From the IMG/VR virus record IMGVR_UViG_3300049216_000067: a stretch of DNA of 64,000 nucleotides; one strand, written 5' to 3'. This document shows positions 298 to 46,202 of this stretch, piece after piece. Within the stretch, counting starts at the first letter, position 1, and every line of letters starts with the position of its first letter. Under the pieces are notes generated by a model. That model did not search any database and was not told where the DNA came from. It worked only from the letters and a program-made list of their open reading frames with translations. Source of the stretch: a virus. The position numbers and the translations under genes are program-made.

Positions 298-372
298 TGG
301 TGCTCTGTTGCAGATTCGAACTGCATTCTCTGACTTACGAAATCAGCACATCTCCTGTTATGTTTACAGAGC
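298..372 (-). tRNA. tRNA-Thr(CGU)
   Basis: Cloverleaf, loop UU-CGU-AA, encoded CCA. Confidence 0.9.
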
Positions 373-379
373 GTTTCAT

Positions 380-386
380 TATTTAG
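380..386 (-). promoter_or_regulatory. Putative late promoter (CTAAATA)
   Basis: Variant of T4 late TATAAATA just upstream of tRNA-Thr/PilZ gene. Confidence 0.45.
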
Positions 387-393
387 TTTAAAA

Positions 394-609
394 TTGACTG
401 CTCATAGCCGCTGTTCTGTTTCTAATCTATCATTTCTCTAAGCCTTAACCCGATCTTTGCTCCTATACCTTCGGAAACGATCTGTTTAAGTTGCTCACCG
501 CCGTTTACGGTATCAGTAGTACAAACGTCTTTAGACTTCTACAGGGTATCGGTGAGCAGCGAACTTCCTCGATGGGTCTCCTTACCCTCCGCGATAGATC
601 GACAGTCAA
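394..609 (-). ncRNA. rnpB: Minimal bacterial-type RNase P RNA (catalytic domain, reduced S-domain)
   Basis: GAGGAAGUUCGCUGCUC and ACAGAACAGCGGCUAU align to CR-I/CR-V with compensated P4; P1, P2, P3, P5, P6, P15 with GGU, P16 and AGAGAAAUGAU (CR-IV) identifiable. Confidence 0.9.
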
Positions 610-613
610 ATCT

Positions 614-796
614 TTAAACTGAAAACTCGTTTAATAGTTTACTTTCTGTAACTACTCTACTGCGAACCCAACTTTCAAAGGTTGGTGGCGTACCAGCATA
701 GGACATAAAAGCCTTTCGATATTCAGAAAGAAGTCTCATATGTTCATCTGAAGTCAATTGAATGTCTGGTTGTTCGTCAACAATCTTAATCGCCAT
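614..796 (-). CDS. Hypothetical protein
   Basis: ORF; start reassigned to MAIKIV after AGGAG. Confidence 0.6.
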   Translation of the reverse strand: MAIKIVDEQPDIQLTSDEHMRLLSEYRKAFMSYAGTPPTFESWVRSRVVTESKLLNEFSV

Positions 797-1139
797 CTTT
801 ATCTCCTGCTTTGATTTTCTCTTTGTCGATTCTAGCTCTTTCTTTATCGACAATTCTCTGCATTTTAACAAGATCGTTTTTCGCTTTCTCTAAAATAGAA
901 ATAGCCTCGTTGATCTTGTCAATTTTTAAACTGTCCACCTCTTCATAACTTTCAAAATCCCAATTGATTACCCTATTGCAGTCACCGAGAGACATATTGA
1001 AATCAATTTGAAGATAGTCTTTATCGGGTGTTTTACCCTTCTTAACTTTCACATAACCTTTATATCGTATATAGCTACCTGTCTCAAACTGGTCGATGAA
1101 ATCGCCACCGGTCGTTTTAAATAGGATATTTTCATCCAT
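786..1139 (-). CDS. Hypothetical protein
   Basis: ORF; start MDENIL with AGGAG RBS. Confidence 0.65.
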   Translation of the reverse strand: MDENILFKTTGGDFIDQFETGSYIRYKGYVKVKKGKTPDKDYLQIDFNMSLGDCNRVINWDFESYEEVDSLKIDKINEAISILEKAKNDLVKMQRIVDKERARIDKEKIKAGDKDGD

Positions 1140-1521
1140 CACTTGTCTCCTGTTCTTCGTCTGGAAGTATAGCATTTTTATCTACTTCTTTCCAGAGACC
1201 GTCGTCTTTCACTTCGACTTTAATCTTGCGCATTTGGCGTTCTACATTGTCCTGAATGACTGCTTCTTGACCAGTTCTCTTTAAGAATTCCAAATGACGC
1301 CAGTCTTCAAACTTCTTGGTCTTTGCCATGCGCTCAAACGCAAGAGAACGGTTCTGGTGCTGACTTCGATGATCTTCAGCATAACCGTGGGCACCTGAGG
1401 CACGATGGGTGCAATGGACCGCAGAATTGGTTTTATTCTTCTTTTGACCACCGTTGCCGGTGCCGCGAGTGTATGACCAATCGGATGCGGTAACGGAGAA
1501 TACTAATTCACGCTTACTCAT
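1132..1521 (-). CDS. RF-1 domain GGQ peptidyl-tRNA hydrolase (ArfB/PrfH-like)
   Basis: RGTGNGGQKKNKTNSAV..H...RSQHQNR motif set. Confidence 0.85.
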   Translation of the reverse strand: MSKRELVFSVTASDWSYTRGTGNGGQKKNKTNSAVHCTHRASGAHGYAEDHRSQHQNRSLAFERMAKTKKFEDWRHLEFLKRTGQEAVIQDNVERQMRKIKVEVKDDGLWKEVDKNAILPDEEQETSDG

Positions 1522-1792
1522 GTTTTGCACTCAAATTTAATTCTTGCATATATTCGTCAGAATATTTTGCATTCACTGTAAAGATTGATCCTGCTGATCT
1601 GCTCATTGGTTGCACAGCAGCCAACTCGATCATTTGTTCGCGAAATTTCTTTTTAATGAATTCGTGTAGTTTCTGTCGAGTTTCCGGAGTATTTGGCATC
1701 CCTACGAAATCTTCAAAACAAGTCGGATTAGAAGCTATGATTTCATAGAATTCATCAGCATCTAAAGTTTCGGATTCAGTTTCTTTTTTCAT
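1514..1792 (-). CDS. Small protein containing a gp23-like VQPM segment
   Basis: ELAAVQPMSRSAGSIFTVNAKY resembles DVCGVQPMTGPTGLIFAMRSKY of gp23 in this window. Confidence 0.6.
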   Translation of the reverse strand: MKKETESETLDADEFYEIIASNPTCFEDFVGMPNTPETRQKLHEFIKKKFREQMIELAAVQPMSRSAGSIFTVNAKYSDEYMQELNLSAKHE

Positions 1793-1953
1793 TGTTTCAC
1801 CAGATCACGAATGTATTTTTGATACTCAATCGGTTTAGCTAAAAAGCTTTTATAGAGAGCTAAACTTTCACCTTTTAGAAGAAACTGGAGACCACGATGC
1901 TCCATCATGACAAAACGGCAATCAAGATTTATATTTACTTGAATTGCGTACAT
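1789..1953 (-). CDS. Hypothetical protein
   Basis: Start moved to MYAIQV to avoid overlap with tRNA-Ser. Confidence 0.5.
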   Translation of the reverse strand: MYAIQVNINLDCRFVMMEHRGLQFLLKGESLALYKSFLAKPIEYQKYIRDLVKQ

Positions 1954-1957
1954 AGAT

Positions 1958-2045
1958 TGGCGGGTAGCAGAAGAATCGAACTCCAACACCTTTCGGCGTC
2001 CCTTTCTTTAGCAAAGAAGCCTGGTTCCAAACCAGATTACTACCC
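1958..2045 (-). tRNA. tRNA-Ser(GCU)
   Basis: Long variable arm, G73, CCA. Confidence 0.85.
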
Positions 2046-2058
2046 TAATCTCCTATAT

Positions 2059-2649
2059 TTAGTTCAACTTGTAAGCTGGATTTTTCCAGACCCTCGATGA
2101 CTTAGGAATCTTCGAAAGCAAATATTCCATCTGATCGTACAACACTTTATGGTTGTCCAAAAGAAGCTTTTCCTGCAAGTTAGGTGCATACGGAACATAC
2201 AACAATTGCATACCTGCTTGTTCCGGTGTCCTGTCTGCTTTACCGTGATTACATGACTTGCAAGCAGAAACAGTGTTCACCCAAGTGTGACGACCACCAT
2301 GAGACTTAGGAATCACATGGTCAATAGTCAACTGATTGTACTTGAATTGAATTCCACAATATGCGCAGATGTAAGCATCACGAGCATAAAGAATATCACG
2401 CTCAGCATAAATCGTTTCTCGTGTGTAGAAATCTCGTCCAAACACAGGACCGTCAACCATAATGATTGAAGAGACTTCAATCTTTGATCGTTCACCCTTA
2501 GAATTCATGCCACCATAGAAAGTGTGAACAGGAGAACCAAGATTACAGATGACCTTACCCAAAGCGTAGTAACGCGCAGACTCTTCTTCGAGTCCGGTCC
2601 ATTCGCGTGGGTTTCCTGATTTGTCAACAACGAGAACTTCTTTCGACAT
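2059..2649 (-). CDS. HNH endonuclease
   Basis: RD.YICAYCG, TIDHVIPKSHGG, NTVSACKSCNHGK. Confidence 0.9.
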   Translation of the reverse strand: MSKEVLVVDKSGNPREWTGLEEESARYYALGKVICNLGSPVHTFYGGMNSKGERSKIEVSSIIMVDGPVFGRDFYTRETIYAERDILYARDAYICAYCGIQFKYNQLTIDHVIPKSHGGRHTWVNTVSACKSCNHGKADRTPEQAGMQLLYVPYAPNLQEKLLLDNHKVLYDQMEYLLSKIPKSSRVWKNPAYKLN

Positions 2650-2704
2650 GTTCTAACTCCTTCACTCACAAGTGCATGATTTATTTAGGAACAAGATTCT
2701 AAAT

Positions 2705-2779
2705 TGGAGTACTGGACTGGATTCGAACCAGCATGGGACTATTTTGCAGACAGCCGCGTGACCTTTCCGCCACCAGTAC
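2705..2779 (-). tRNA. tRNA-Cys(GCA)
   Basis: Cloverleaf, U73, CCA. Confidence 0.9.
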
Positions 2780-2801
2780 ATTCGTAAGGAGTATAACTTT
2801 G

Positions 2802-3122
2802 TTATCGAGCTATGACAAGGTTCTTTGGAGGGACTTCAATTTTCGTCTTTCCATTGATCTTGTTGTAATGAGCTAGAATCTGATCTTCTGGCTCAGTAAT
2901 GTAGACAATCTTATCTTCAAGAATTTCAATCTCTTCTTTTGCCAAAGTTCCCCATGGAATGAAAGCAAACATGATCTGCGTCTTACCGGCTGCATCAGGT
3001 GGTCCCTGCTGTGGGATAACAAGAATCGCATCTGTAAGTGAATAACCTGTTTTTAAGGTTTGAACAGTTGCAAGTAATTCTTCACCAGTAACAAGCTTGA
3101 TTAATTTGACGCTAGATTCCAT
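2802..3122 (-). CDS. Conserved T4-like phage hypothetical protein (Sm-like fold likely)
   Basis: VKLIKLVTGEELLA...FIPW...Y pattern typical of T4-like phages. Confidence 0.6.
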   Translation of the reverse strand: MESSVKLIKLVTGEELLATVQTLKTGYSLTDAILVIPQQGPPDAAGKTQIMFAFIPWGTLAKEEIEILEDKIVYITEPEDQILAHYNKINGKTKIEVPPKNLVIAR

Positions 3123-3146
3123 GATAATTCCTTTAGGTAAAGCTTT

Positions 3147-3169
3147 ATTATACAGTATTTTTGTTTAAT
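3147..3169 (-). promoter_or_regulatory. Promoter ATTAA-N12-TATAAT
   Basis: Member of recurrent promoter class (see findings). Confidence 0.6.
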
Positions 3170-3176
3170 AAGAAAT

Positions 3177-3252
3177 TGGAGCGGATGAAGGGACTCGAAC
3201 CCTCGACATCTTCCTTGGCAAGGAAGCGCAATAGCCGCTATGCGACATCCGC
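3177..3252 (-). tRNA. tRNA-Gly(GCC)
   Basis: Cloverleaf, CCA. Confidence 0.92.
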
Positions 3253-3258
3253 GTAAAC

Positions 3259-3333
3259 TGGTGCTCCAACACAGAATCGAACTGTGACTTGGTCCTTACC
3301 AAGGACCTGTAATAACCATTTTACTATAGGAGC
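3259..3333 (-). tRNA. tRNA-Thr(GGU)
   Basis: Cloverleaf, CCA. Confidence 0.9.
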
Positions 3334-3391
3334 GATACATTCAGATTATCCTTTTAATTGCGACTGTTTCCCCCCCCCCCCGCAATGGATT

Positions 3392-3465
3392 TGGTGGTCG
3401 TACTAGGAATCGAGCCTAGGTATCTTCCATGTCATAGAAGTGTTCTACCATTGAACTATACAACC
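3392..3465 (-). tRNA. tRNA-Val(GAC)
   Basis: Cloverleaf, variant T-loop, CCA. Confidence 0.85.
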
Positions 3466-3473
3466 AAAACCGT

Positions 3474-3650
3474 TTAGTGAAAGCCGTGCAAATACGGCAA
3501 CAGTTGGACTACCAACCATATGACCAACGCAACGATGGCAACACCGTTTAGAATTTGCTTGAACGTTTCCTGCAAAGGAGCCTTATTGACAAGCCATAGC
3601 AAAAAACCTGCAACAAAAATCACAATCAAAATGTGGATAATGTCCACCAT
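3474..3650 (-). CDS. Small two-helix membrane protein (Thivi_2564-like)
   Basis: Two hydrophobic segments; GGAG RBS. Confidence 0.65.
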   Translation of the reverse strand: MVDIIHILIVIFVAGFLLWLVNKAPLQETFKQILNGVAIVALVIWLVVQLLPYLHGFH

Positions 3651-3683
3651 AAATTTCTCCATTGTAAATTAAACGTTCGAAAT

Positions 3684-3759
3684 TGGTCCCCTTGCCAGAA
3701 CTCGAATCTGGAATAAAACGTTCGTAGCGTTTCGTGATATCCGGTTTCACCACAAGGAG
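3684..3759 (-). tRNA. tRNA-Arg(ACG)
   Basis: Cloverleaf, CCA. Confidence 0.9.
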
Positions 3760-3840
3760 AGATACTGGTTACGTTTCCAGTTCATGTAGGATCATCTGGT
3801 TTGCCTAAGCCTAACAGATAAACACTCGCCATGACGATTT

Positions 3841-3913
3841 TGGTAGCGGTCGCTGGTAATGCTCCAGTTCTACAGGTTATGAGCCTGTCGTCAACTTTTT
3901 CGACTTCCCCGCT
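3841..3913 (-). tRNA. tRNA-Met(CAU), atypical
   Basis: ACAGG-CUCAUAA-CCUGU arm, CCA; non-canonical T-loop and acceptor mismatches. Confidence 0.7.
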
Positions 3914-3925
3914 ATAATCTTTATA

Positions 3926-4246
3926 TGATGTTTGGTGCTGATTTTTCGAGTAGTTGTCAAGCTACTATCTTTCTTTTTAGGTCCGGTGGGTTTATGACTT
4001 ACACATCTCCACTCTGTTGCAACAAAGTTTCGCAGATATGAGAGGAATTTTCCTCCAACGTAGTCGTCTTCTGACTGTTTATGGTCTACCAACTACGCAG
4101 CGATCACAGGCGGGTTCCGTCTTTTTCCTGTTACTTTCTGTCATTACCTTACCTAATCATACTCAAACCTTCTCGACAGCCCGTGAGAAGTACCTTCCTG
4201 CCGAAGAACGCAGTTTATCAGTCACAAAAAACCAACCCAAACATCA
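3926..4246 (-). ncRNA. Unassigned ~320-nt structured RNA
   Basis: ~22-bp terminal helix plus multiple internal hairpins; sits between two tRNA genes. Confidence 0.7.
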
Positions 4247-4254
4247 CATTAAAC

Positions 4255-4329
4255 TGGTGGTGATACTGAGAATCGAACTCAGATCTATGGCTTATGAGAC
4301 CACTGCCCTAGCCGTTGGACGATATCACC
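4255..4329 (-). tRNA. tRNA-Met or Ile2 (CAU)
   Basis: Cloverleaf, CCA. Confidence 0.85.
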
Positions 4330-4420
4330 GTAAATTGTTGGGACCTATCGCTGCCCGTGCGAGTATTTTACGAATAATACCATTCGTCTCTACAAACACT
4401 GACGCTCGTTGAGAAGTAAT

Positions 4421-4496
4421 TGGTGGAACTGGTAGGAGTCGAACCTACATCTCGTCCTCTTCAGGGACACGCTAAAGCCACCTCAGCTACAGTTCC
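4421..4496 (-). tRNA. tRNA-Phe(GAA)
   Basis: Cloverleaf, CCA. Confidence 0.9.
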
Positions 4497-4501
4497 AAAT
4501 T

Positions 4502-4578
4502 TGGTGCCCAATGAGGGAGTCGAACCCTCAAAACCCAGCTTCTTAGACTGGTACGTATGCCAATTCCGTCAACTGGGC
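4502..4578 (-). tRNA. tRNA-Leu(AAG), short variable loop
   Basis: CCAGU-CUAAGAA-GCUGG; Leu-type D-loop GGAAUUGGCAUAC. Confidence 0.85.
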
Positions 4579-4587
4579 AAATAAAAT

Positions 4588-4664
4588 TGGTGCGCCTGAC
4601 AGGAGTCGAACCTGCAAGATTTTGGTTCTAAGCCAAACATGTTTGCCAATTTCATCACAAGCGC
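4588..4664 (-). tRNA. tRNA-Leu(UAG), short variable loop
   Basis: Cloverleaf, CCA. Confidence 0.88.
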
Positions 4665-4670
4665 ATAATT

Positions 4671-4756
4671 TGGCGGAAAGCTGACGAATCGAACGCCACA
4701 AGTTTCCCTGCGATGTGCTTTCTAGACACTCAGAGACCCAGTCTCTATAACTTTCC
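4671..4756 (-). tRNA. tRNA-Ser(AGA)
   Basis: Loop CU-AGA-AA, long variable arm, G73 CCA. Confidence 0.82.
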
Positions 4757-4760
4757 AAAT

Positions 4761-4846
4761 TGGCGGAAGTGTGACGAATCGAACGCCACTAGCGAACCAG
4801 CGATCAGTTTTCAAGACTGCCCTCATCCCAGACGAGATACACTTCC
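4761..4846 (-). tRNA. tRNA-Ser(UGA)
   Basis: Long variable arm, G73 CCA. Confidence 0.88.
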
Positions 4847-4851
4847 AAAAT

Positions 4852-4927
4852 TGGGGCGGCTAACGGGACTTGAACCCGTACTGACTCTTTCACAGAGAGT
4901 GGTGCTAACCATTACACTATAGTCGCC
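4852..4927 (-). tRNA. tRNA-His(GUG)
   Basis: G-1:C73 pair, CCA. Confidence 0.92.
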
Positions 4928-4933
4928 ATAAAT

Positions 4934-5007
4934 TGGATCATCCTCTAAGATTCGAACTTAGGTCACTACTTTCAGAGAGTAGGGTACTGCCGCTGTACGA
5001 AGGATGA
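4934..5007 (-). tRNA. tRNA-Gln(CUG)
   Basis: U1-A72, cloverleaf, CCA. Confidence 0.9.
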
Positions 5008-5014
5008 ATAAACT

Positions 5015-5089
5015 TGGTGTTCCTAGAGGGAATCGAACCCTCGTCGTGGGACTGAGAAACCCACATCCTAGCCTCTAGAAGATAGGAAC
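5015..5089 (-). tRNA. tRNA-Glu(CUC)
   Basis: Glu-type D arm, loop UU-CUC-AG, CCA. Confidence 0.82.
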
Positions 5090-5094
5090 AAATT

Positions 5095-5202
5095 TGGCCC
5101 CTCAGAATGGATTTGCACCACCTTCGTCGGCAAGGACGACGCTCTTTTAAATGATCCACCCGGACATGTGATCAAACAATCTTCTTTTGAGCTACTTCGG
5201 GA
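5095..5202 (-). ncRNA. tRNA-like RNA with hairpin inserted in D-loop
   Basis: GCUC/GAGC D-stem enclosing ~40 nt, CGUCG/CGACG arm, T-like arm, GCCA end. Confidence 0.55.
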
Positions 5203-5250
5203 AATAAAGAAAGACATTTTGGCTCTAATTGCCTGGTGTGTTTCACTAAA

Positions 5251-5324
5251 TGGTCAGGATAGCAGGAGTTGAACCTGCGCCGCGAGCTTCCAAAACTCGA
5301 ACGCTACCGTAACGCTTTACCCTG
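5251..5324 (-). tRNA. tRNA-Pro(UGG)
   Basis: C1-G72, CCA. Confidence 0.88.
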
Positions 5325-5395
5325 AGATGCGTGAATGACCTGGGTCAATCACGACTTTTGTGTCCCGCTTAGATTTGTCTAGCGGCTCGCACGTT

Positions 5396-5472
5396 TGGTG
5401 CCCAATGCGAGAGTCGAACTCGCAAAACCGAATTTTTGAGATTCGTATGTATGCCAATTCCATCAATTGGGC
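5396..5472 (-). tRNA. tRNA-Leu(CAA), short variable loop
   Basis: Cloverleaf, CCA. Confidence 0.88.
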
Positions 5473-5482
5473 GAACTTAAAT

Positions 5483-5558
5483 TGGATCACCGTGTACGAT
5501 TCGAACGTACATTTTCCTCGTTCAAAGCGAAGCGTCCTACCAATTAGACGAACAGTGA
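5483..5558 (-). tRNA. tRNA-Gln(UUG)
   Basis: Cloverleaf, CCA. Confidence 0.9.
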
Positions 5559-5565
5559 ATAAACT

Positions 5566-5640
5566 TGGCGATCCCAAGGAGAATCGAACTCCTACTTTCT
5601 CTTAGACAGAGAGAAATCATAGCCATTAGATCATGGGACC
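5566..5640 (-). tRNA. tRNA-Asp(GUC)
   Basis: Cloverleaf, G73 CCA. Confidence 0.9.
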
Positions 5641-5646
5641 ATAAAG

Positions 5647-5721
5647 TGGTACGTCTACACGGACTCGAACCGCGATTCTCCGCTAATCAGGCAGATGTCT
5701 TTGCCATTGGACGATAGACGC
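5647..5721 (-). tRNA. tRNA-Ile(GAU)
   Basis: Cloverleaf, CCA. Confidence 0.88.
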
Positions 5722-5724
5722 ATA

Positions 5725-5877
5725 TTAAAGTGAAAGCAATTCTCGTAGAGAATTAAATCTCTTTCCTGATTCATCAAGAAAGTAGACTTGGACAGTTTTT
5801 CCACCATCAACGACTGTGCATCGAGTGATGTGTTTACCGTCTACTACGATTGGATATTTTCTAGTGATCTGAGCCAT
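5725..5877 (-). CDS. 50-aa protein inside tRNA array (not in ORF track)
   Basis: TAAGGAG RBS; MAQITRKYPIVVDGKHITRCTVVDGGKTVQVYFLDESGKRFNSLRELLSL fills the inter-tRNA gap. Confidence 0.65.
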   Translation of the reverse strand: MAQITRKYPIVVDGKHITRCTVVDGGKTVQVYFLDESGKRFNSLRELLSL

Positions 5878-5897
5878 GAGAAAATCTCCTTACTGAT

Positions 5898-5973
5898 TGG
5901 TGGGTCCTGTGGGGTATGATCCCACATCTCTGCGCTTAAAAGGCGTGACTCTTTCCATTTGAGTTAAGGACCC
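5898..5973 (-). tRNA. tRNA-Lys(UUU)
   Basis: Cloverleaf, variant T-loop, CCA. Confidence 0.85.
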
Positions 5974-5977
5974 GAAT

Positions 5978-6025
5978 TGGAGCGGCACCGACAGGTTAGT
6001 GTCGTAAGCTCTAGAACCGTGCCGC
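5978..6025 (-). ncRNA. 48-nt tRNA minihelix-like RNA with Gly-type acceptor
   Basis: GCGGCAC/GUGCCGC + UCCA, CGACA/UGUCG stem, no D or anticodon arm. Confidence 0.6.
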
Positions 6026-6031
6026 ATAAAG

Positions 6032-6106
6032 TGGTTGACCCTGAGAATTTCGAAATCTCGACTTTTGCCGTGTAAAGACAACGCTCTGCCTCTGAGCTAA
6101 GGGTCA
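6032..6106 (-). tRNA. tRNA-Val(UAC)
   Basis: Cloverleaf, CCA. Confidence 0.88.
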
Positions 6107-6112
6107 ATAAAT

Positions 6113-6188
6113 TGGTGTCCCGAACAGGAATCGAACCTGTACCTTAACGCTTAGGAGGCGTAAACATTATCCATTGTGCTACCGGGAC
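6113..6188 (-). tRNA. tRNA-Arg(CCU)
   Basis: Cloverleaf, CCA. Confidence 0.88.
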
Positions 6189-6193
6189 GTAAT

Positions 6194-6276
6194 TGGCTCT
6201 CTCGGAAGGATTCGGACCTCCATCACTTACCGTTCGCGAAAACGGCAGTAAGCTCTCGATATTGAGCTACAAGAGA
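6194..6276 (-). ncRNA. tRNA-like RNA with elongated anticodon arm
   Basis: Normal acceptor/D/T arms, GCCA; arm UUAC-UG-CCGUU-UUCGCG-AACG-GUAA. Confidence 0.6.
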
Positions 6277-6283
6277 ATAAACT

Positions 6284-6367
6284 TGGTGGCTCTGATGGGA
6301 TTTGAACCGCATAGCCTTCTGGTTTGATGCTATCTAACCTGACGCTCTACTATTGAGCTACAGAACC
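6284..6367 (-). ncRNA. tRNA-like RNA with enlarged anticodon loop
   Basis: Acceptor GGUUCUG/CAGAGCC, ACCA; GGUU-AGAUAGCAUCA-AACC arm. Confidence 0.6.
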
Positions 6368-6372
6368 GAAAT

Positions 6373-6447
6373 TGGAGCGGAAGACGAGACTCGAACTCGT
6401 ATACTCTTGGTTGGAAGCCAGGGGCACAGCCTTTGTACCACATCCGC
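6373..6447 (-). tRNA. tRNA-Gly(UCC)
   Basis: Cloverleaf, U73 CCA. Confidence 0.9.
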
Positions 6448-6453
6448 ATAAAT

Positions 6454-6528
6454 TGGTACTCCGTAGGGGTGTCGATCCCCTTCCTACGCCTTGAAAGGGC
6501 GTCGATCTAGCCGGTAATCTAACAGAGC
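6454..6528 (-). tRNA. tRNA-Glu(UUC)
   Basis: Cloverleaf, CCA. Confidence 0.88.
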
Positions 6529-6722
6529 ATAATCCGATATTTTAGCGTCGGCTTTAGCGCATTTTTGGGGCAGACCTAAGTCTAACCACTCCACCATCTA
6601 GTTTTTGAAAACTAGAAAATTAAAATGTGATCTACTCACCCTCTCACCATACTGAACCGAGAGAGGCTACGAAATGGTTCAGCCTGGATAGCTACTTGTA
6701 GATCTTTGCTATCGTATGATCG

Positions 6723-6798
6723 TGGTCAAGGTGGCGAGACTCGAACTCGCGATTCCATGCGCCCAAGGCATGTGGTATAGCCGCTAACCGACACCCTG
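6723..6798 (-). tRNA. tRNA-Pro(UGG), second divergent copy
   Basis: Cloverleaf, CCA. Confidence 0.9.
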
Positions 6799-6904
6799 AA
6801 AATATATTGAACCGGTTACGTCATCCGGTGTTGCTTGCGGCAACCGTAATGCCCACTCCTGCCGGGTGGTGGGCTGTCTCTACCCGCAAGATAGAGACTT
6901 TGTT

Positions 6905-6983
6905 TGGTGCCTCCAGCGGGAGTCGAACCCGCAAGTAACCCGCGTTTTAAGTGCAGTGCATATGCCAATTCTGCTACAGAGGC
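6905..6983 (-). tRNA. tRNA-Leu(UAA), short variable loop
   Basis: Cloverleaf, CCA. Confidence 0.85.
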
Positions 6984-6987
6984 GATT

Positions 6988-7083
6988 TGGTAGTCCCACC
7001 AGGACTCGAACCTGGATCATGCGGTAATCTGCCGCCAAAGCCACTTTATAAGGGTGGTGTTTTAACCATTAAACTATAGGACC
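6988..7083 (-). tRNA. tRNA-Ile(UAU) with long variable arm
   Basis: Loop CU-UAU-AA; variable arm GCGG-CAGAUUA-CCGC; CCA. Confidence 0.82.
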
Positions 7084-7088
7084 GAATT

Positions 7089-7179
7089 TGGTGGTGCATC
7101 CAGGTAACGATCCTGGCTAGGCTTATTAGGCTCACCGGTTTTACAGACCGGTCCCCATCCTTAAGGGTTTTACTGCACC
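7089..7179 (-). tRNA. tRNA-Tyr(GUA)
   Basis: Long variable arm, CCA. Confidence 0.85.
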
Positions 7180-7186
7180 ATAATTT

Positions 7187-7261
7187 TGGACCCGCTGGCC
7201 GGATTCGAACCGACGTTCATTGAGGTAGAAGCTCAAGGCACATCCTCTATACCACAGCGAG
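7187..7261 (-). tRNA. tRNA-Arg(UCU)
   Basis: Cloverleaf, CCA. Confidence 0.9.
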
Positions 7262-7593
7262 ATTATTTCTTTCTTCGTAGTGTACGATAGCGTGACAATT
7301 GGCACGCAGCACAACGCACTTCGCGATTTCTTCTTTCATCCTATGAATTGAATAGCCTTGCTTATGCATTTGGCTAATTTCAATATCTTTTTGTGATGGA
7401 TCAGAATGATGAAATTGCAATGTTGCCGGATGATTTTGTCCACATTTAGCGCACATTAAATTTTTTTGAATTCTTGAATCCATTCTTTCAATATAGATCG
7501 TCTTTCTTTGATTTTAGAGATTGCATGTTGTTGGTTCTTAGCGTACCAATCTCTACGAGATTGTCTGACTTTTTTTATATTTCTTATCGACAT
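7247..7593 (-). pseudogene. Small HNH-family endonuclease, frameshifted in an A7 run
   Basis: MSIRNIKK...EWIQEFKK joins CAKCG..LQFHH..ANCH frame if one A is added at 7461-7467. Confidence 0.65.
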
Positions 7594-7595
7594 GA

Positions 7596-7629
7596 CTCCA
7601 AACCTTATTTTGTTGTTTGGAGTATTTAG
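7596..7629 (-). promoter_or_regulatory. Late promoter plus RBS-occluding hairpin
   Basis: CTAAATA followed by CTCCAAAC-N11-GTTTGGAG ending 2 nt before ATG. Confidence 0.6.
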
Positions 7630-7706
7630 TGGCAGGTTGTGACGGTGACGATCCGCCTTTGATAGTTTTGGAGACTACGGTCTTAGCCAACGTAGACGAA
7701 CAACCC
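7630..7706 (-). tRNA. tRNA-Trp(CCA)
   Basis: Cloverleaf, G73 CCA. Confidence 0.88.
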
Positions 7707-7712
7707 ATAAAT

Positions 7713-7787
7713 TGGTGCTCTCACTCGGAATCGAACTGAGTTCTCAGGCTTACAAAACCCGTGCATCGCCAACAATGCTTTGAGAGC
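7713..7787 (-). tRNA. tRNA-Thr(UGU)
   Basis: Cloverleaf, CCA. Confidence 0.9.
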
Positions 7788-7827
7788 GTAACGACGGTTC
7801 TCTACTCTAGTACCGACAACACGTATT

Positions 7828-7901
7828 TGGTGGACCGTGAGAGAATCGAACTCTCAATAGTGACTTGCAAGGCCACTGTTATCCCATTTAACTAACAGCC
7901 C
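7828..7901 (-). tRNA. tRNA-Ala(UGC)
   Basis: G3-U70, CCA. Confidence 0.92.
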
Positions 7902-7907
7902 AAATTT

Positions 7908-7983
7908 TGGTGGGTCCGCAGGGATTTGAACCCTGATCGTGCTCCTTAAGAGGGAGATATAATAGCCGTTATACGACAGACCC
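7908..7983 (-). tRNA. tRNA-Lys(CUU)
   Basis: Cloverleaf, CCA. Confidence 0.9.
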
Positions 7984-8048
7984 GAATAAGACCATAACAA
8001 TCCGCGCCAGGGTGAAGCGTTTCTAATGTTATGGATAAAACCCTGCAA

Positions 8049-8119
8049 GATCCTTGACAGGAATTGAACCTGCTTCTCCCGATTCAAATTCGGGCGACTT
8101 ACCGTTTGTCTTCGAGGAC
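8049..8119 (-). tRNA. tRNA-Gln(UUG)-like, no encoded CCA, possibly degenerate
   Basis: CCCGA-AUUUGAA-UCGGG, good T arm, one acceptor mismatch. Confidence 0.6.
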
Positions 8120-8250
8120 AGATCTTTTTTACGTGTTAGTCTCACGATCCGGACTCGGACATTAGGATTCAATAATGGAACTGTTGGCACATACGATGAC
8201 GAGTCGATGTTTAGGTTGTCAGCCTTAGTCAACAGTTCCGCGTTAATTTT

Positions 8251-8322
8251 CTCCAGCACAAGGAATCGAACCTTGCCACAAATCGTTAACAGCGATCCCG
8301 CACACCTTGCGCGTCTACTGGA
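8251..8322 (-). tRNA. tRNA-Asn(GUU), no encoded CCA
   Basis: U1-A72, G73, loop CU-GUU-AA. Confidence 0.85.
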
Positions 8323-8340
8323 ATAAATCGAAAATAAAGT

Positions 8341-8467
8341 GCGGGTGTCCTGGGCCACTAGACGAAGGCTCGCCGGTCGCGTGCGTGAGCACTTGAATCT
8401 CGGTACGTTTTCGAGAGCCGGTATAGATGAACCTGTTGGATTCGAACCAACGTTCCCCGCGTTAGAG
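8341..8467 (-). ncRNA. Circularly permuted tRNA-like element (3' half precedes 5' half; CUA anticodon loop)
   Basis: 8467-8427 = anticodon loop, GCGGG, T arm, AGGUUCA; 8372-8341 = CGAGCCU, D arm, CCCGC; both cross-stems pair. Confidence 0.75.
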
Positions 8468-8643
8468 TTTCCCTGCTTTACATCGTGTTTCCCTAATAGG
8501 TACTTAACAATGCTGGACACGTTTTAGTCCAACCTGATTTAGGTGGTGAGGGCGACCAAGGTCATTCAATGGAATCCAAAGAATGCTTGAGAAATTGATG
8601 CTGGCTTCACGAGTTTCCTCGACGGATTTCCAGCTTCCAAAGT

Positions 8644-8675
8644 AAAAAGGCCACGCTTTGGCAAGCGATGGCCTT
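8644..8675 (-). terminator. Intrinsic terminator-like hairpin upstream of tRNA array
   Basis: AGGCCAUCGCUU-GCCA-AAGCGUGGCCU then U run. Confidence 0.6.
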
Positions 8676-8832
8676 GTAATCTTGTTCCAGCGGTTCCATG
8701 GGAAGGAGTGACCGCGTGCCTAGCGTGCAAGAACGTTGCACGAGTTGCGTAGTGGAAGCGGGGATACAGCTGAACCTCTTCGGTTCGAAGGCTTATCTGC
8801 CTGAGATACTTCTACTACCTCTAATGCTTACT

Positions 8833-8874
8833 ATCTTAGATTATTTAATCTTTAATAGCAAGTCTCATATTTAT
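8833..8874 (-). promoter_or_regulatory. Tandem promoters for RNA region (ATAAATA late-like; TTGCT-ATTAA-N13-TAAGAT)
   Basis: Motif matches in AT-rich intergenic DNA. Confidence 0.55.
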
Positions 8875-43098: not shown

Positions 43099-45477
43099 CT
43101 ATTCTGCAATATCTGCTGCAAATTCTTTAATAATCATCTTTGAATTCATTTTCCTTTTCTGATGATCAATGAAATTCTTACCCATATCAGCGGCAGAATA
43201 ACCAGGATAGTAGCCCATATCACCGCGATAAGTCATCGTCTCAGTGTTAACATAATAATAGTTATCATAACCAAGGTTAGGTACTGAAATGTAGCCATTG
43301 GCATCCAAAAACTTACTATGCTCAGTAATATTTTTCTTCAGATCAACATTGCCTATTAGCCTCTGTCGAATATGACTATATGTGGCGAAATAATAACCAA
43401 TGTGACGGCAATTGGTGGTCTCTGCAACAAGTCTGGTAAGTGCTGTCTGGTAAGACAGTATGTTCTTGTTGTCGGTTAGCACGCCAATCTTAGAATTGAA
43501 ATCTCTGACACCAATACGAGTCTTGGTGAGTTCATCGTAAGGAACAGAAGAATAATTCTCACCATTGCGAATGTCACCATAGCCATCACCATCGGACAAA
43601 TAAATCACATTGGTGATATCAACGTGATGTTTATTCTTAAACTCATCAATGATGTACTTAGATGCCACCAAGGTCTCGTTAAACGGTGTACCACCTAGTT
43701 CAAAACCACAAGCTGTTATGTTTCCCTGATAGGTAGGTTCATTAAAGCATGCGCTAGATTGTGGATCACGATCACGATGATTACTAATCTGTGCAATGAC
43801 ATTGAGCATTGTAAATGCTTTCTTGTACGCATTACCGCTAAGGCTAGAAGAAATCAAATGTCTCAAATTGAAATGACTATCACCAAAAGTGAATCCACCA
43901 TTGACAGGTGTAAACATCATTTTAGAGTTCACACCAAAATTGTAGCTATGTATATCACCAAAGCCGTATACGTCGAACGGGATACCAATACGACGACAGA
44001 AAGTGCAAAGAATCAACACTTGTTCAAGAATTTCACGGACAAGCATTGACATAGATCCACTAAAATCTAAAAACATGATCATGCCGTGAGACTTACCCTT
44101 AGTAATAGTGGTCACCTTGCGAAACACATCCATCGTCAACTTGTAGCGAGACAATTTCTTATCGTCCAATTCACCAGTCTTAGCAGTCAATTGGCGAGCG
44201 TATTGATTGGCATTCTTACGCATCTCGAATTCTTTCACGAGCATCCCAATGAAACCTTTGTTGCGCTTATGGAAAGCCGCATTGAGGCCACTGGATACTT
44301 CAGAGTAGTTCATCGGTGCTTTAACATTAGTCAGTCCGCGCGGATTACTGTTTTGGAACTGAGCAACAATAGAGGTTTCATACTTACCGACAACCATCTT
44401 ATGAGGGACAATAATCGTCTTGAGATTCGCCTTAGGAATATCAAGGTATAGGATGCCCTCGCCATGTTCATTAACTAGATCTTTTTCCTGTTCACGAAAA
44501 AAATCGTCAGTCTCAGACGTAGGTTCTTCGTTTATCTCATCTTCATTTTTACCGGCATTCTTACCACCAGGTTTTTGATTATCATTCTCTTCAGATTCAT
44601 CATCAGATTCTGATTCACCTTCTCCATCCTCAGAGTCACCGTCAGAATCGTCTGATTCATCGGTGCCATCACCTGAGCCACTATCGTTTTCATCAGAATC
44701 GTCAGAGTCTCCAGACTCATTGTCCTCAGAGTCACCATCCTCAGAATCATCGTCACCTTCATCTTTAAATTTATCTTTGGACTTCTCTTTAGACTTTTCG
44801 GACTTATCTTTTTTTGACTTGTCCTTTTCGCCTTTGTTATCGTTCTTGTTCTTCGTCTTCTCAGGTTCTTTGAATTTGGCATAGTCATAGATATCACGAG
44901 CAAGCTGAGCAGCTTCTTCAAAGGTTTCAATGTTCTCAGCACGGTCAACAAATACCTTTTCTTCTTTGTCGAAAGAAATATGTAGATGGGCACCAACTTT
45001 GAAAAATAGATTGATACGGTCGATCAAGCGCAAGCTTGAGTAGTCACCTTTAAGCCTAGAAACTCCGAAAAAGTCGCGTTCATGGAGTGACTTGTAGGCT
45101 TCCGCAAACGGACGACGCAAGCCTGGATACTTACGTTTGATGATTTTCTCGATTCGAGCATCTTCAACGACGTTCAAAAAGCTTTTAATTTTAGGACGAG
45201 ACTTGTCCTTAGCGTCATTGGTGATCGTGTCATGCCAACCCAAAAGCGGCGTGTTGAGTGCATGACTAATTTCATGACCCATAAGCAAATCGTAAATGTT
45301 GCCGTCCATCTCTTGCCAAACGGGACAATGAAGGACACGATTTTTTAAATCAAACTTAGCCGTCTTGATTGGACGGTGACGGACACTGATATTTTCAGTA
45401 GCCATCAACCTGGCTAGGTTGGACTTGTTTTGACTGAGAGTCGGCTTGTCGCGACTTCCAGAATCAAGCTTTTTCAT
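43099..45477 (-). CDS. CobT-like metallopeptidase/vWA protein
   Basis: HEISH, NVVEDARIE, acidic linker, DFSGSM, LSDG. Confidence 0.82.
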   Translation of the reverse strand: MKKLDSGSRDKPTLSQNKSNLARLMATENISVRHRPIKTAKFDLKNRVLHCPVWQEMDGNIYDLLMGHEISHALNTPLLGWHDTITNDAKDKSRPKIKSFLNVVEDARIEKIIKRKYPGLRRPFAEAYKSLHERDFFGVSRLKGDYSSLRLIDRINLFFKVGAHLHISFDKEEKVFVDRAENIETFEEAAQLARDIYDYAKFKEPEKTKNKNDNKGEKDKSKKDKSEKSKEKSKDKFKDEGDDDSEDGDSEDNESGDSDDSDENDSGSGDGTDESDDSDGDSEDGEGESESDDESEENDNQKPGGKNAGKNEDEINEEPTSETDDFFREQEKDLVNEHGEGILYLDIPKANLKTIIVPHKMVVGKYETSIVAQFQNSNPRGLTNVKAPMNYSEVSSGLNAAFHKRNKGFIGMLVKEFEMRKNANQYARQLTAKTGELDDKKLSRYKLTMDVFRKVTTITKGKSHGMIMFLDFSGSMSMLVREILEQVLILCTFCRRIGIPFDVYGFGDIHSYNFGVNSKMMFTPVNGGFTFGDSHFNLRHLISSSLSGNAYKKAFTMLNVIAQISNHRDRDPQSSACFNEPTYQGNITACGFELGGTPFNETLVASKYIIDEFKNKHHVDITNVIYLSDGDGYGDIRNGENYSSVPYDELTKTRIGVRDFNSKIGVLTDNKNILSYQTALTRLVAETTNCRHIGYYFATYSHIRQRLIGNVDLKKNITEHSKFLDANGYISVPNLGYDNYYYVNTETMTYRGDMGYYPGYSAADMGKNFIDHQKRKMNSKMIIKEFAADIAE

Positions 45478-46202
45478 TAGCCACCCAATGGCGCTGTGCC
45501 AAGAAGATCAATGTTCATTGACTCATAGCTAGGAATTTCGATCTTGAGATCAGGAATGCTGAGATTGATTTGCTTCTCCAATTCCGCAACACGACGCTCT
45601 TCAATGACTTTTTGCATTGCCTGATTAATGATCTGCTGCTTTGCATGCGCCTGTCGCTGACGTTCCAATTTCTTCAAATTGGTCTTGACCTTGGACTTAG
45701 CTTTGTCAAGCGTGTAACGATCCACTAGACTAGTGTAGACAATGCCGTTCAAATGATCCAACTCATGAAGAAAGGTGCGAGCGGTCAAACCACCAAAGGT
45801 TTCACGATGAATCTTCCCTAACATGTCCTGATATTCAACTTCAATGGTGTCGGGACGATTGATCTTGAGATACATTCCTTTAAAGCTAAGGCAACCTTCT
45901 TCAAAGGAGACCATACCGGTTGTCGAAATAACTTTGGGATTGAAGCAAGCGTACCCTTGACCGTTAGGGGCACCCATAACGAACACACGATGAAGTAGAC
46001 CACACTGAGGTGCGGCCAAACCAACACCACCATGTTGCATCATCGTTCGAATGAGACCAACAGCCAAGCTGGCTGGATTGACAGAAAGAGATTCGAAATT
46101 GAACTCTGGTGTGACCGTATGCAATACATCGTCATATTTGTCTACCAGCGGATAGATCTGGTATTCGACTTCCGTTCCATCTGACATTTTTTCTAAAGGC
46201 AT
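45477..46202 (-). CDS. def: Peptide deformylase
   Basis: GVGLAAPQ, EGCLS, HELDHLNG. Confidence 0.95.
   Translation of the reverse strand: MPLEKMSDGTEVEYQIYPLVDKYDDVLHTVTPEFNFESLSVNPASLAVGLIRTMMQHGGVGLAAPQCGLLHRVFVMGAPNGQGYACFNPKVISTTGMVSFEEGCLSFKGMYLKINRPDTIEVEYQDMLGKIHRETFGGLTARTFLHELDHLNGIVYTSLVDRYTLDKAKSKVKTNLKKLERQRQAHAKQQIINQAMQKVIEERRVAELEKQINLSIPDLKIEIPSYESMNIDLLGTAPLGG

Follow-up and report, generated by a model that had tools for sequence, protein, structure and literature searches.

Our analysis of a 64,000-nt stretch of viral DNA from IMG/VR record IMGVR_UViG_3300049216_000067 (hereafter, the window) identified a miniature ribonuclease P (mini RNase P) RNA, reduced to the catalytic domain, within a region of stable RNA genes that spans window positions 298-8830 on the minus strand. 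We consider it probable that a T4-like phage has its stable RNAs encoded here and that the mini RNase P RNA, having kept the type-A catalytic domain, matures the transfer RNAs (tRNAs) of the phage, the other parts of the region being its neighbours. Unless stated otherwise, the genes and RNA elements described below lie on the minus strand of the window.

The mini RNase P RNA (392-618) ends 19 nt upstream of the tRNA-Thr(CGU) gene, at the downstream end of the tRNA array, and contains the helices P1, P2, P3, P4 and P5, the P6 pseudoknot, P15 and P16/17 in canonical order. The side of conserved region I (CR-I) reads GAGGAAGUUCGCUG, the E. coli equivalent being GAGGAAAGUCCGGG, and the CR-V side reads ACAGAACAGCGGCUAU (E. 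coli equivalent, ACAGAACCCGGCUUAU). These two strands form P4 with its bulged U, as AGU(U)CGCUG pairs with CAGCGGCU. The P6 pseudoknot joins J5/7 to the P17 loop, and is AUACC/GGUAU in the window and GAAGC/GCUUC in L002, an IMG/VR contig (166.7 kb, 98% complete) that is the nearest long relative of the window. In L15, the motif GGGUU is located between the 3' strands of P16 and P15 and is collinear with the E. coli GGGUA. The specificity domain (S-domain, P7-P14) was not found: just 49 nt separate the P5 strands, and these form a small hairpin stub that is itself conserved throughout the family.

A comparison with the bacterial type-A RNase P RNA (E. coli M1 RNA, encoded by rnpB; RF00010) showed the same order of P1, P2, P3, P4 with its bulged U, P5, P6 and P15-P17, as well as the same placement of the motifs GAGGAA (CR-I), GCAA...AAACAG (J5/15), GGGU (L15), AGA.AAUGA (J18/2) and ACAGAA...GGCU.A (CR-V). 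Collinearity with E. coli rnpB extends over the 3' half (L15 GGGU, J18/2, P2, ACAGAA, P4, and P1) except for P18, which the window copy lacks; this alignment was limited to the 3' half, as MAFFT misaligned the 5' half. In contrast to the E. coli RNA (377 nt), the phage RNA has a length of approximately 220 nt, is not matched by Rfam and has no rnpA partner that we could find, and its P7-P14 region, which in E. coli reads the tRNA elbow, is replaced across the phage family by a conserved hairpin stub of 35-50 nt. The diverged copy in L002 (10751-11009 of that contig) differs from the window in P1, P2, P4, P5, P6, P15 and P16, each of which changes on both strands in step.

To retrieve further members of the family, a single pattern derived from the CR-I and CR-V motifs of the window, with four free positions, was scanned against IMG/VR. 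The scan returned 64 stretches, the number expected by chance being approximately 3-6 by our estimate. Two stretches resemble coding sequence, and the remaining 62 align as a single family with 50 distinct forms and a strongly conserved core. In a covariation set of 36 sequences with 44 hand-assigned pairs, pairing occurs in 81.7% of the cells, compared with 59.8% after shuffling. The covariation score reaches 0.534, whereas shuffles give 0.154 and slid partners no more than 0.133, and double changes occur in 37 of the 44 pairs (core helices P1, P2, P3, P5, P15, and P16). Across these 36 relatives P4 is paired in 99.7% of cells, and its four unconstrained pairs are formed in 143 of 144 cells, with 3-4 pair types each. 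In L15, T162 never varies, and G160 and G161 each show at least 90% conservation. Different lineages carry a different complementary 5-8-mer at the two places that form P6, although the length of this complementarity shows a modest excess over shuffles (6.4 vs. 5.0).

A covariance model built from 35 relatives, with the window left out, found window positions 392-618 at 130.8 bits (E-value = 8e-37) and the L002 copy at 77.7 bits, and nothing further in the window. Against E. coli rnpB, the best match of the phage model is correctly placed but scores 8.5 bits only. Conversely, the Rfam RNase P models match four of the relatives below threshold (L059, L048, L060, and L073; 25-49 bits vs. thresholds of 60-84), the best being L059 with RNaseP_arch (48.9 bits, E-value = 4.6e-11); the gathering threshold of Rfam clan CL00002 is reached neither by the window copy nor by its relatives. 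The RNase P RNA claimed in the original prediction is therefore confirmed by family, covariation and covariance model, without an Rfam match. A rigid P4 scanner was also tried and was dropped, as it missed the L002 copy. In prokaryote genomes, the ribozyme pattern gave 40 matches, approximately the estimated chance level, three of which score as members of the phage family and are located on short contigs of metagenome-assembled genomes (MAGs). The phage model also matches, over their full length, elements of approximately 205-230 nt at 23-37 bits in MAG contigs from Micrarchaeota and an uncultured archaeon (L086, L091, L093, L094, and L100), which may be small DPANN RNase P RNAs.

The genomic surroundings of the family link it to tRNAs. 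Of 63 loci with the ribozyme, 53 also contain tRNAs, without exception on its strand, and in 32 loci a tRNA lies at most 150 nt away. Contigs bearing the ribozyme reach 494 kb, and a 735-kb uncultured phage in GenBank carries an unannotated mini RNase P copy. Two other phage lineages have a gene for transfer-messenger RNA (tmRNA) within a few kb of the ribozyme (L033 1261-1644, equivalent to L076 4710-5091, and L067 5069-5412); in the window, Rfam matched no tmRNA. Full-text literature searches did not yield any account of an RNase P RNA encoded by a virus, and we could not find this widespread phage family in the literature searched.

The window itself is, judging from its gene content, from a T4-like phage of moss metagenomes, several of which contain its DNA. 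The minus strand carries all long open reading frames (ORFs). The major capsid protein matches phrog_138 and has approximately 60% identity to the capsids of T4-like cyanophages, and the DNA polymerase, helicases and ribonucleotide reductase find their matches in phage families. No close relative was present among 50,697 deposited phage genomes, and megablast and blastn searches with the array matched only single tRNAs in known phages. Judging by the close relative L002, the genome would have a size of approximately 170 kb.

The array that accompanies the ribozyme (298-8323) is co-directional and comprises 36 decoding tRNAs, as determined with ARAGORN, Rfam and lowered thresholds. With default settings, ARAGORN reported 33 tRNAs (2705-8323), all on the minus strand and many separated by just 4-10 nt, and CCA is encoded in 32 of these 33. 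The use of Rfam and lowered thresholds added tRNA-Thr(CGU) at 298-372, tRNA-Ser(GCU) at 1958-2045 and a deviant tRNA-Tyr(GUA) at 7089-7179, whose L002 counterpart is a canonical tRNA-Tyr at the equivalent position after tRNA-Arg(UCU). Each of the 36 has a cloverleaf and a 7-nt anticodon loop, and together they represent all 20 amino acids, as had been predicted. This supports an almost complete decoding set, with which every sense codon box would be readable. The earlier count of 38 tRNAs is reached when two further RNAs are added to these 36 decoders, namely a second Gln(UUG)-like tRNA (8049-8118), which has no CCA and a mismatch in the acceptor stem and is probably a degenerate copy, and an unusual CAU tRNA-like RNA described below. 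Inspection of the sequences of both CAU species showed in neither the features of an initiator tRNA (such as a 1-72 mismatch or three G-C pairs in the anticodon stem). Since there is no initiator tRNA, the set is not fully self-sufficient, and the term self-contained used in the original prediction was an overstatement, as neither this tRNA nor an RnpA protein was found.

Several tRNAs of the array have unusual features. All four tRNAs with Leu anticodons (4502-4578, 4588-4664, 5396-5472, and 6905-6983) are 77-79 nt long and combine a short variable region with a D loop of 11 nt, and three of the four Leu tRNAs of L002 are of this short-arm type; a long extra arm is the norm in bacterial Leu tRNAs. 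The tRNA-Ile(UAU) gene (6988-7083) carries a stem-loop of approximately 25 nt in the variable region, and tRNA-Ile(UAU) has a length of 92-99 nt in five phage lineages (the window, L002 6460-6555, L003 11200-11295, L004 3732-3823, and L008 1831-1929). In addition, A34 is present in Leu-AAG (4502-4578), Ser-AGA (4671-4756) and Arg-ACG (3684-3759), and in most bacteria it is restricted to Arg-ACG.

Regarding the protein subunit, RnpA (PF00825) was detected in none of five related phage genomes, four of which are at least 98% complete, and the same search was positive in 10 of 14 control bacteria. The bacterial catalytic domain together with RnpA reportedly cleaves precursor tRNA, according to work from the Pan laboratory. 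Building on the identity, anatomy and conservation observed for the parts, we infer the following for catalysis, the protein partner and the tRNA-like RNAs. The array would be transcribed as long precursors, and the mini RNase P RNA, probably together with the host RnpA, which we propose as partner because no phage rnpA was found, would remove the 5' leaders from both the phage tRNAs and the tRNA-like RNAs with a CCA end. It may grip its substrates through the acceptor stem and a contact between GGU in L15 and the RCCA end, instead of through the tRNA elbow. Where CCA is encoded, trimming would suffice at the 3' end. The resulting tRNA set would sustain phage translation, with the GGQ protein and the peptide deformylase described below as independent translation helpers.

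A bolder proposal, which we regard as tentative and hold at somewhat less than even confidence, is that large phages carry a stripped-down, elbow-independent RNase P, which works with the host RnpA to mature a polycistronic array that includes RNAs that the host enzyme may handle poorly. These would be the tRNAs with unusual D and T loops, the class-I-like Leu tRNAs, the minihelices and the other CCA-ended tRNA-like RNAs. If true, this would make the phage tRNA supply independent of the levels or the shut-off of host RNase P.

It should be noted that several observations weigh against the interpretation of this region as a tRNA array served by its own RNase P RNA. Rfam returned no RNase P match for the window even at E-values up to 10 on short stretches. 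The seeds of the family were gathered with a pattern derived from the window, so that circularity affects the fixed motif positions as evidence, but not the variable ones. The P4 strand of the window is GAGGAAGUUC instead of the bacterial GAGGAAAGUCC, and therefore one P4 pair is U·G. The host RnpA as partner is reasonable but purely inferred. CCA is encoded in 56% of the tRNAs in ribozyme loci and in 98% of those in the few loci without ribozyme; since encoded CCA does not track the ribozyme, we rejected it as a general stand-in for the lost S-domain, and the RCCA contact is not the general substitute for that domain. Finally, contigs from RNA libraries, identical to the window, span only six short stretches of the array (2507-2657, 3589-3739, 4541-4745, 4780-4930, 7431-7680, and 8669-8849; one of them bridges three adjacent tRNAs), and the ribozyme, the large RNA and the mimics lie outside them. 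These contigs come from two runs, apparently one data set filed twice, in which DNA carry-over is possible.

Besides the decoding tRNAs, the region contains a large structured RNA and several tRNA-like RNAs. The large RNA (approximately 325 nt; 3923-4249), predicted earlier as a large noncoding RNA, has a long-range closing helix of 25 bp and a consensus of 93 pairs. Its identity as a structured RNA was confirmed by compensatory changes, as 30 of these pairs, those of the closing helix included, are kept by double changes in L002. Indels of 1-2 nt relative to L002 break the reading frames, and therefore it is not protein-coding. No Rfam family matched it, and a search of IMG/VR and JGI metagenomes with its pattern found only the lineage of the window. 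Directly 3' of it is the non-canonical CAU tRNA-like RNA (3841-3914), with a D loop of 5 nt and AGCAUUA as its T loop. In the relative L080 its loops are identical and the acceptor, anticodon and T stems have changed in a compensatory manner; compensatory changes are also present in L002, and L057 provides a further match.

The tRNA mimics of the original prediction are real as structures (6194-6276, 6284-6367, 5978-6025, and 8341-8467). The tRNA-shaped RNA at 6194-6276 has intact acceptor, D and T arms, a CCA end, and a bulged 9-bp anticodon arm with a 6-nt loop. Its neighbor at 6284-6367 (Rfam tRNA, 50 bits) has an 11-nt anticodon loop, a bulge in the T stem and a CCA end. Each of the two folds into a cloverleaf whose acceptor and D stems are intact (z-scores, -2.1 and -2.3), and for neither was a counterpart found in the relatives, L002 included. 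The RNA at 5978-6025 is a 48-nt minihelix of acceptor and T arm that ends in UCCA; like the two tRNA-shaped RNAs it does not have a 7-nt anticodon loop, and it has neither a D nor an anticodon arm. Its counterpart in L002 (5628-5674) shares the 14-nt linker, keeps G1-C72, C2-G71, G3-C70 and U73, and shows compensatory changes in both helices. A descriptor search for this minihelix gave 15 matches vs. 2-8 in shuffles, an excess too weak to claim a minihelix family beyond the window and L002. The element at 8341-8467 consists of swapped tRNA halves (3' half, 54-nt linker, and 5' half) that are complementary to each other; over 33 nt, its 5' half shares 91% identity with E. coli tRNA-Glu genes, it was not found in L002, and it may be recombination debris. 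Folding of this element and of 5093-5240 is no better than that of shuffled sequences. Conservation in relatives is thus limited to three of these RNAs, namely the large RNA, the CAU tRNA-like RNA and the minihelix.

Among the proteins, the GGQ hydrolase that had been predicted corresponds to an RF-1-domain protein (phrog_3122) encoded among the tRNA genes at 1132-1530, which contains the NGGQ motif and matches Pfam RF-1 at 51.8 bits (cut-off, 35; E-value = 9.5e-14). As in ArfB (NF006718) and PrfH (TIGR03072), the protein is small and made of an RF-1 GGQ domain. However, it scores 29.1 bits against ArfB (cut-off, 100), over residues 16-41 only, and 50.4 bits against PrfH (cut-off, 166.65). ArfB inserts a basic tail into the empty mRNA channel, whereas the last 45 residues of the phage protein are net acidic (seven lysine or arginine vs. 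13 aspartate or glutamate residues). The low score and the acidic tail rule out its assignment as ArfB. The peptide deformylase predicted elsewhere in the window is encoded at 45477-46202, with the motifs GVGLAAPQ, EGCLS and HELDH and a score above the TIGR00079 cut-off (107.4 vs. 103.95 bits).

The original prediction combines the tRNAs and their mimics with the ribozyme, the GGQ protein and the deformylase into a single integrated system, with which the phage would replace the host tRNA pool and deploy decoys against anticodon nucleases or other tRNA-targeting defences. In agreement with this, the window contains every part in the same orientation, three lineages (window/L001, L002, and L080) have a GGQ gene that is linked to the array, tmRNA genes adjoin the ribozyme in two others, and the minihelix and the CAU tRNA-like RNA are conserved through compensatory changes. 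In addition, the ability of phage tRNAs to counteract tRNA-cleaving defences is established (PMC10264068, PMC11555353), the tRNA sets of T5-like phages acting against such immunity through decoding tRNAs with altered anticodon loops; the array described here is likewise a large repertoire that could replace depleted host tRNAs, but those sets involve neither a ribozyme nor a non-decoding mimic. At the level of genomes, however, co-occurrence fails in both directions. Among five phage genomes with mini RNase P RNA, RF-1 is present in three and deformylase in two, with two complete genomes lacking both, and a 90-kb genome (100% complete) with a GGQ homologue has no mini RNase P. The GGQ gene is also missing from the DNA fetched around the ribozyme at all of the loci L014-L076, and no ribozyme was found within 10 kb of the GGQ gene at eleven other GGQ loci. 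Furthermore, a distance of 37 kb separates the deformylase from the other parts, L002 shows no detectable counterpart of the swapped halves or of either remodelled tRNA body, and the binding of nucleases by mimics is purely conjectural. As the parts occur separately, they are neighbours from a variable translation toolbox and not an obligate system. When the parts were checked for co-conservation in related phages, only the association between tRNAs and RNase P proved general. A single co-inherited system is thus not supported, and we consider the integrated reading unlikely.

We give even less credence to the idea that the RNase P-like RNA acts as a sponge or competitor, which would capture the host RnpA or block the host RNase P and so shut down host tRNA and RNA maturation. 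Any protein partner must be that of the host, given that no phage rnpA was found, and the regions that a bacterial RnpA contacts (P2-P4 and J18/2) are kept, both of which fit a sponge. Yet such an RNA would have no need of the L15 GGGU, the P6 pseudoknot, the P15-P17 arm and the bulged U of P4, all conserved or covarying, and the same-strand location in tRNA arrays in 53 of 63 loci fits processing. A different alternative concerns the mimics, most of which could be decaying tRNA copies and debris of homing endonucleases and of tRNA-tRNA recombination, without function. For this we see a genuine possibility, if slightly short of an even one. L002 carries a truncated tRNA-Ile(UAU) copy beside the intact gene, and contigs from another moss metagenome, 90-99% identical to the window, replace or join across 4249-4499, 6800-6957, 7189-7701, 8169-8251 and 1482-1795, so that tRNA and spacer content varies between close strains; the truncated copy and these joins across spacers make it probable that some mimics are decaying copies. 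The Gln(UUG)-like 8049-8118 without CCA and with its acceptor mismatch, the swapped halves, absent from L002 and with a 5' half resembling a host-type tRNA-Glu, and the two elements that fold no better than shuffles point in the same direction. So do two HNH endonuclease genes within the array. One is an intact homing endonuclease gene (2059-2649) that aligns at the DNA level (E-values down to 1e-50) in at least 10 other mini RNase P loci and, from these alignments, looks like a mobile gene travelling with tRNA arrays. The other (7247-7593) is broken, being split by a frameshift over two frames, with a 78-amino acid ORF that corresponds only to the C-terminal half of phrog_2255. Such decay does not account for the helices of the minihelix and the CAU tRNA-like RNA, kept through compensatory changes in distant relatives, nor for 6194-6276 and 6284-6367, which retain intact acceptor and D stems (apart from the T-stem bulge of the latter), CCA ends and better folding than shuffles.

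The reading of a phage tRNA array with its own catalytic-domain RNase P RNA can also be compared with other known systems. The type-T RNase P RNA of Thermoproteaceae (RF02357), reportedly described by Lai and colleagues in 2010, is said to have approximately 200 nt and to have lost nearly all of its S-domain, while being cellular, essential and associated with archaeal protein subunits. The phage family resembles it in the loss of the S-domain, and the relative L048 matches RF02357 at 30.9 bits; it differs in having a bacterial-type L15/P15-P17 and P6 and in being additional to the host enzyme. The tRNA region of phage T4 contains eight tRNAs, the stable RNAs rnaC and rnaD of unknown function and the homing endonuclease SegB, and relies on the host RNase P. 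Both regions thus combine a tRNA cluster with extra stable RNAs and a homing endonuclease, but that of the window holds 36 tRNAs and, in addition, a ribozyme gene and an RNA of 325 nt. Finally, theta ribozymes (minimal HDV-like ribozymes) adjoin phage tRNAs and have been proposed to process them (PMC10879173). These are small and self-cleaving, acting in cis at tRNA 3' ends, whereas the mini RNase P RNA is of a trans-acting type and would act at 5' ends.

The region contains additional ORFs and structures. A 129-amino acid ORF of no known family (786-1175) lies between the GGQ gene and the ribozyme, and its DNA can be aligned in L001 and L002. A 106-amino acid ORF (phrog_527, with a weak DUF6561 match; 2802-3122) and a small hydrophobic ORF of 62 amino acids (phrog_23151; 3474-3662) are also conserved in L001 and L002. 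A 92-amino acid ORF (1514-1792) shows faint similarity to the N-terminal part of the Gp23 capsid family, and an ORF with a weak PilZ domain (1-297) begins directly after tRNA-Thr(CGU). Upstream of the array there is a conserved structured leader with an intrinsic-terminator-like hairpin at its end (8640-8850). This leader is GC-rich, aligns with L002 1507-1831 and is overlain by the deepest RNA-library contig (8669-8849). A promoter scan gave matches below the chance level. The spacers 6799-6904 (z-score = -3.85) and 5325-5395 (z-score = -3.55) form clean sets of hairpins that fold far better than shuffled sequences; no homologue of either was found, and 6799-6904 is skipped in a related strain.

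To our knowledge, RNase P RNA has been viewed as a cellular ribozyme of universal occurrence. The mini RNase P family would mean that phages take over tRNA maturation besides tRNA supply, and it provides an annotation marker for phage tRNA arrays that has been overlooked by Rfam. As natural bacterial-type RNase P RNAs of approximately 200-260 nt without a specificity domain, its members offer a ready minimal ribozyme for structural and mechanistic study. The region adds the conserved 325-nt RNA, the Gly-type minihelix and the odd CAU tRNA-like RNA as concrete targets for the sequencing of small RNAs. Taking into account the negative result on co-occurrence, the translation genes of big phages appear to be a shifting toolbox rather than one system.

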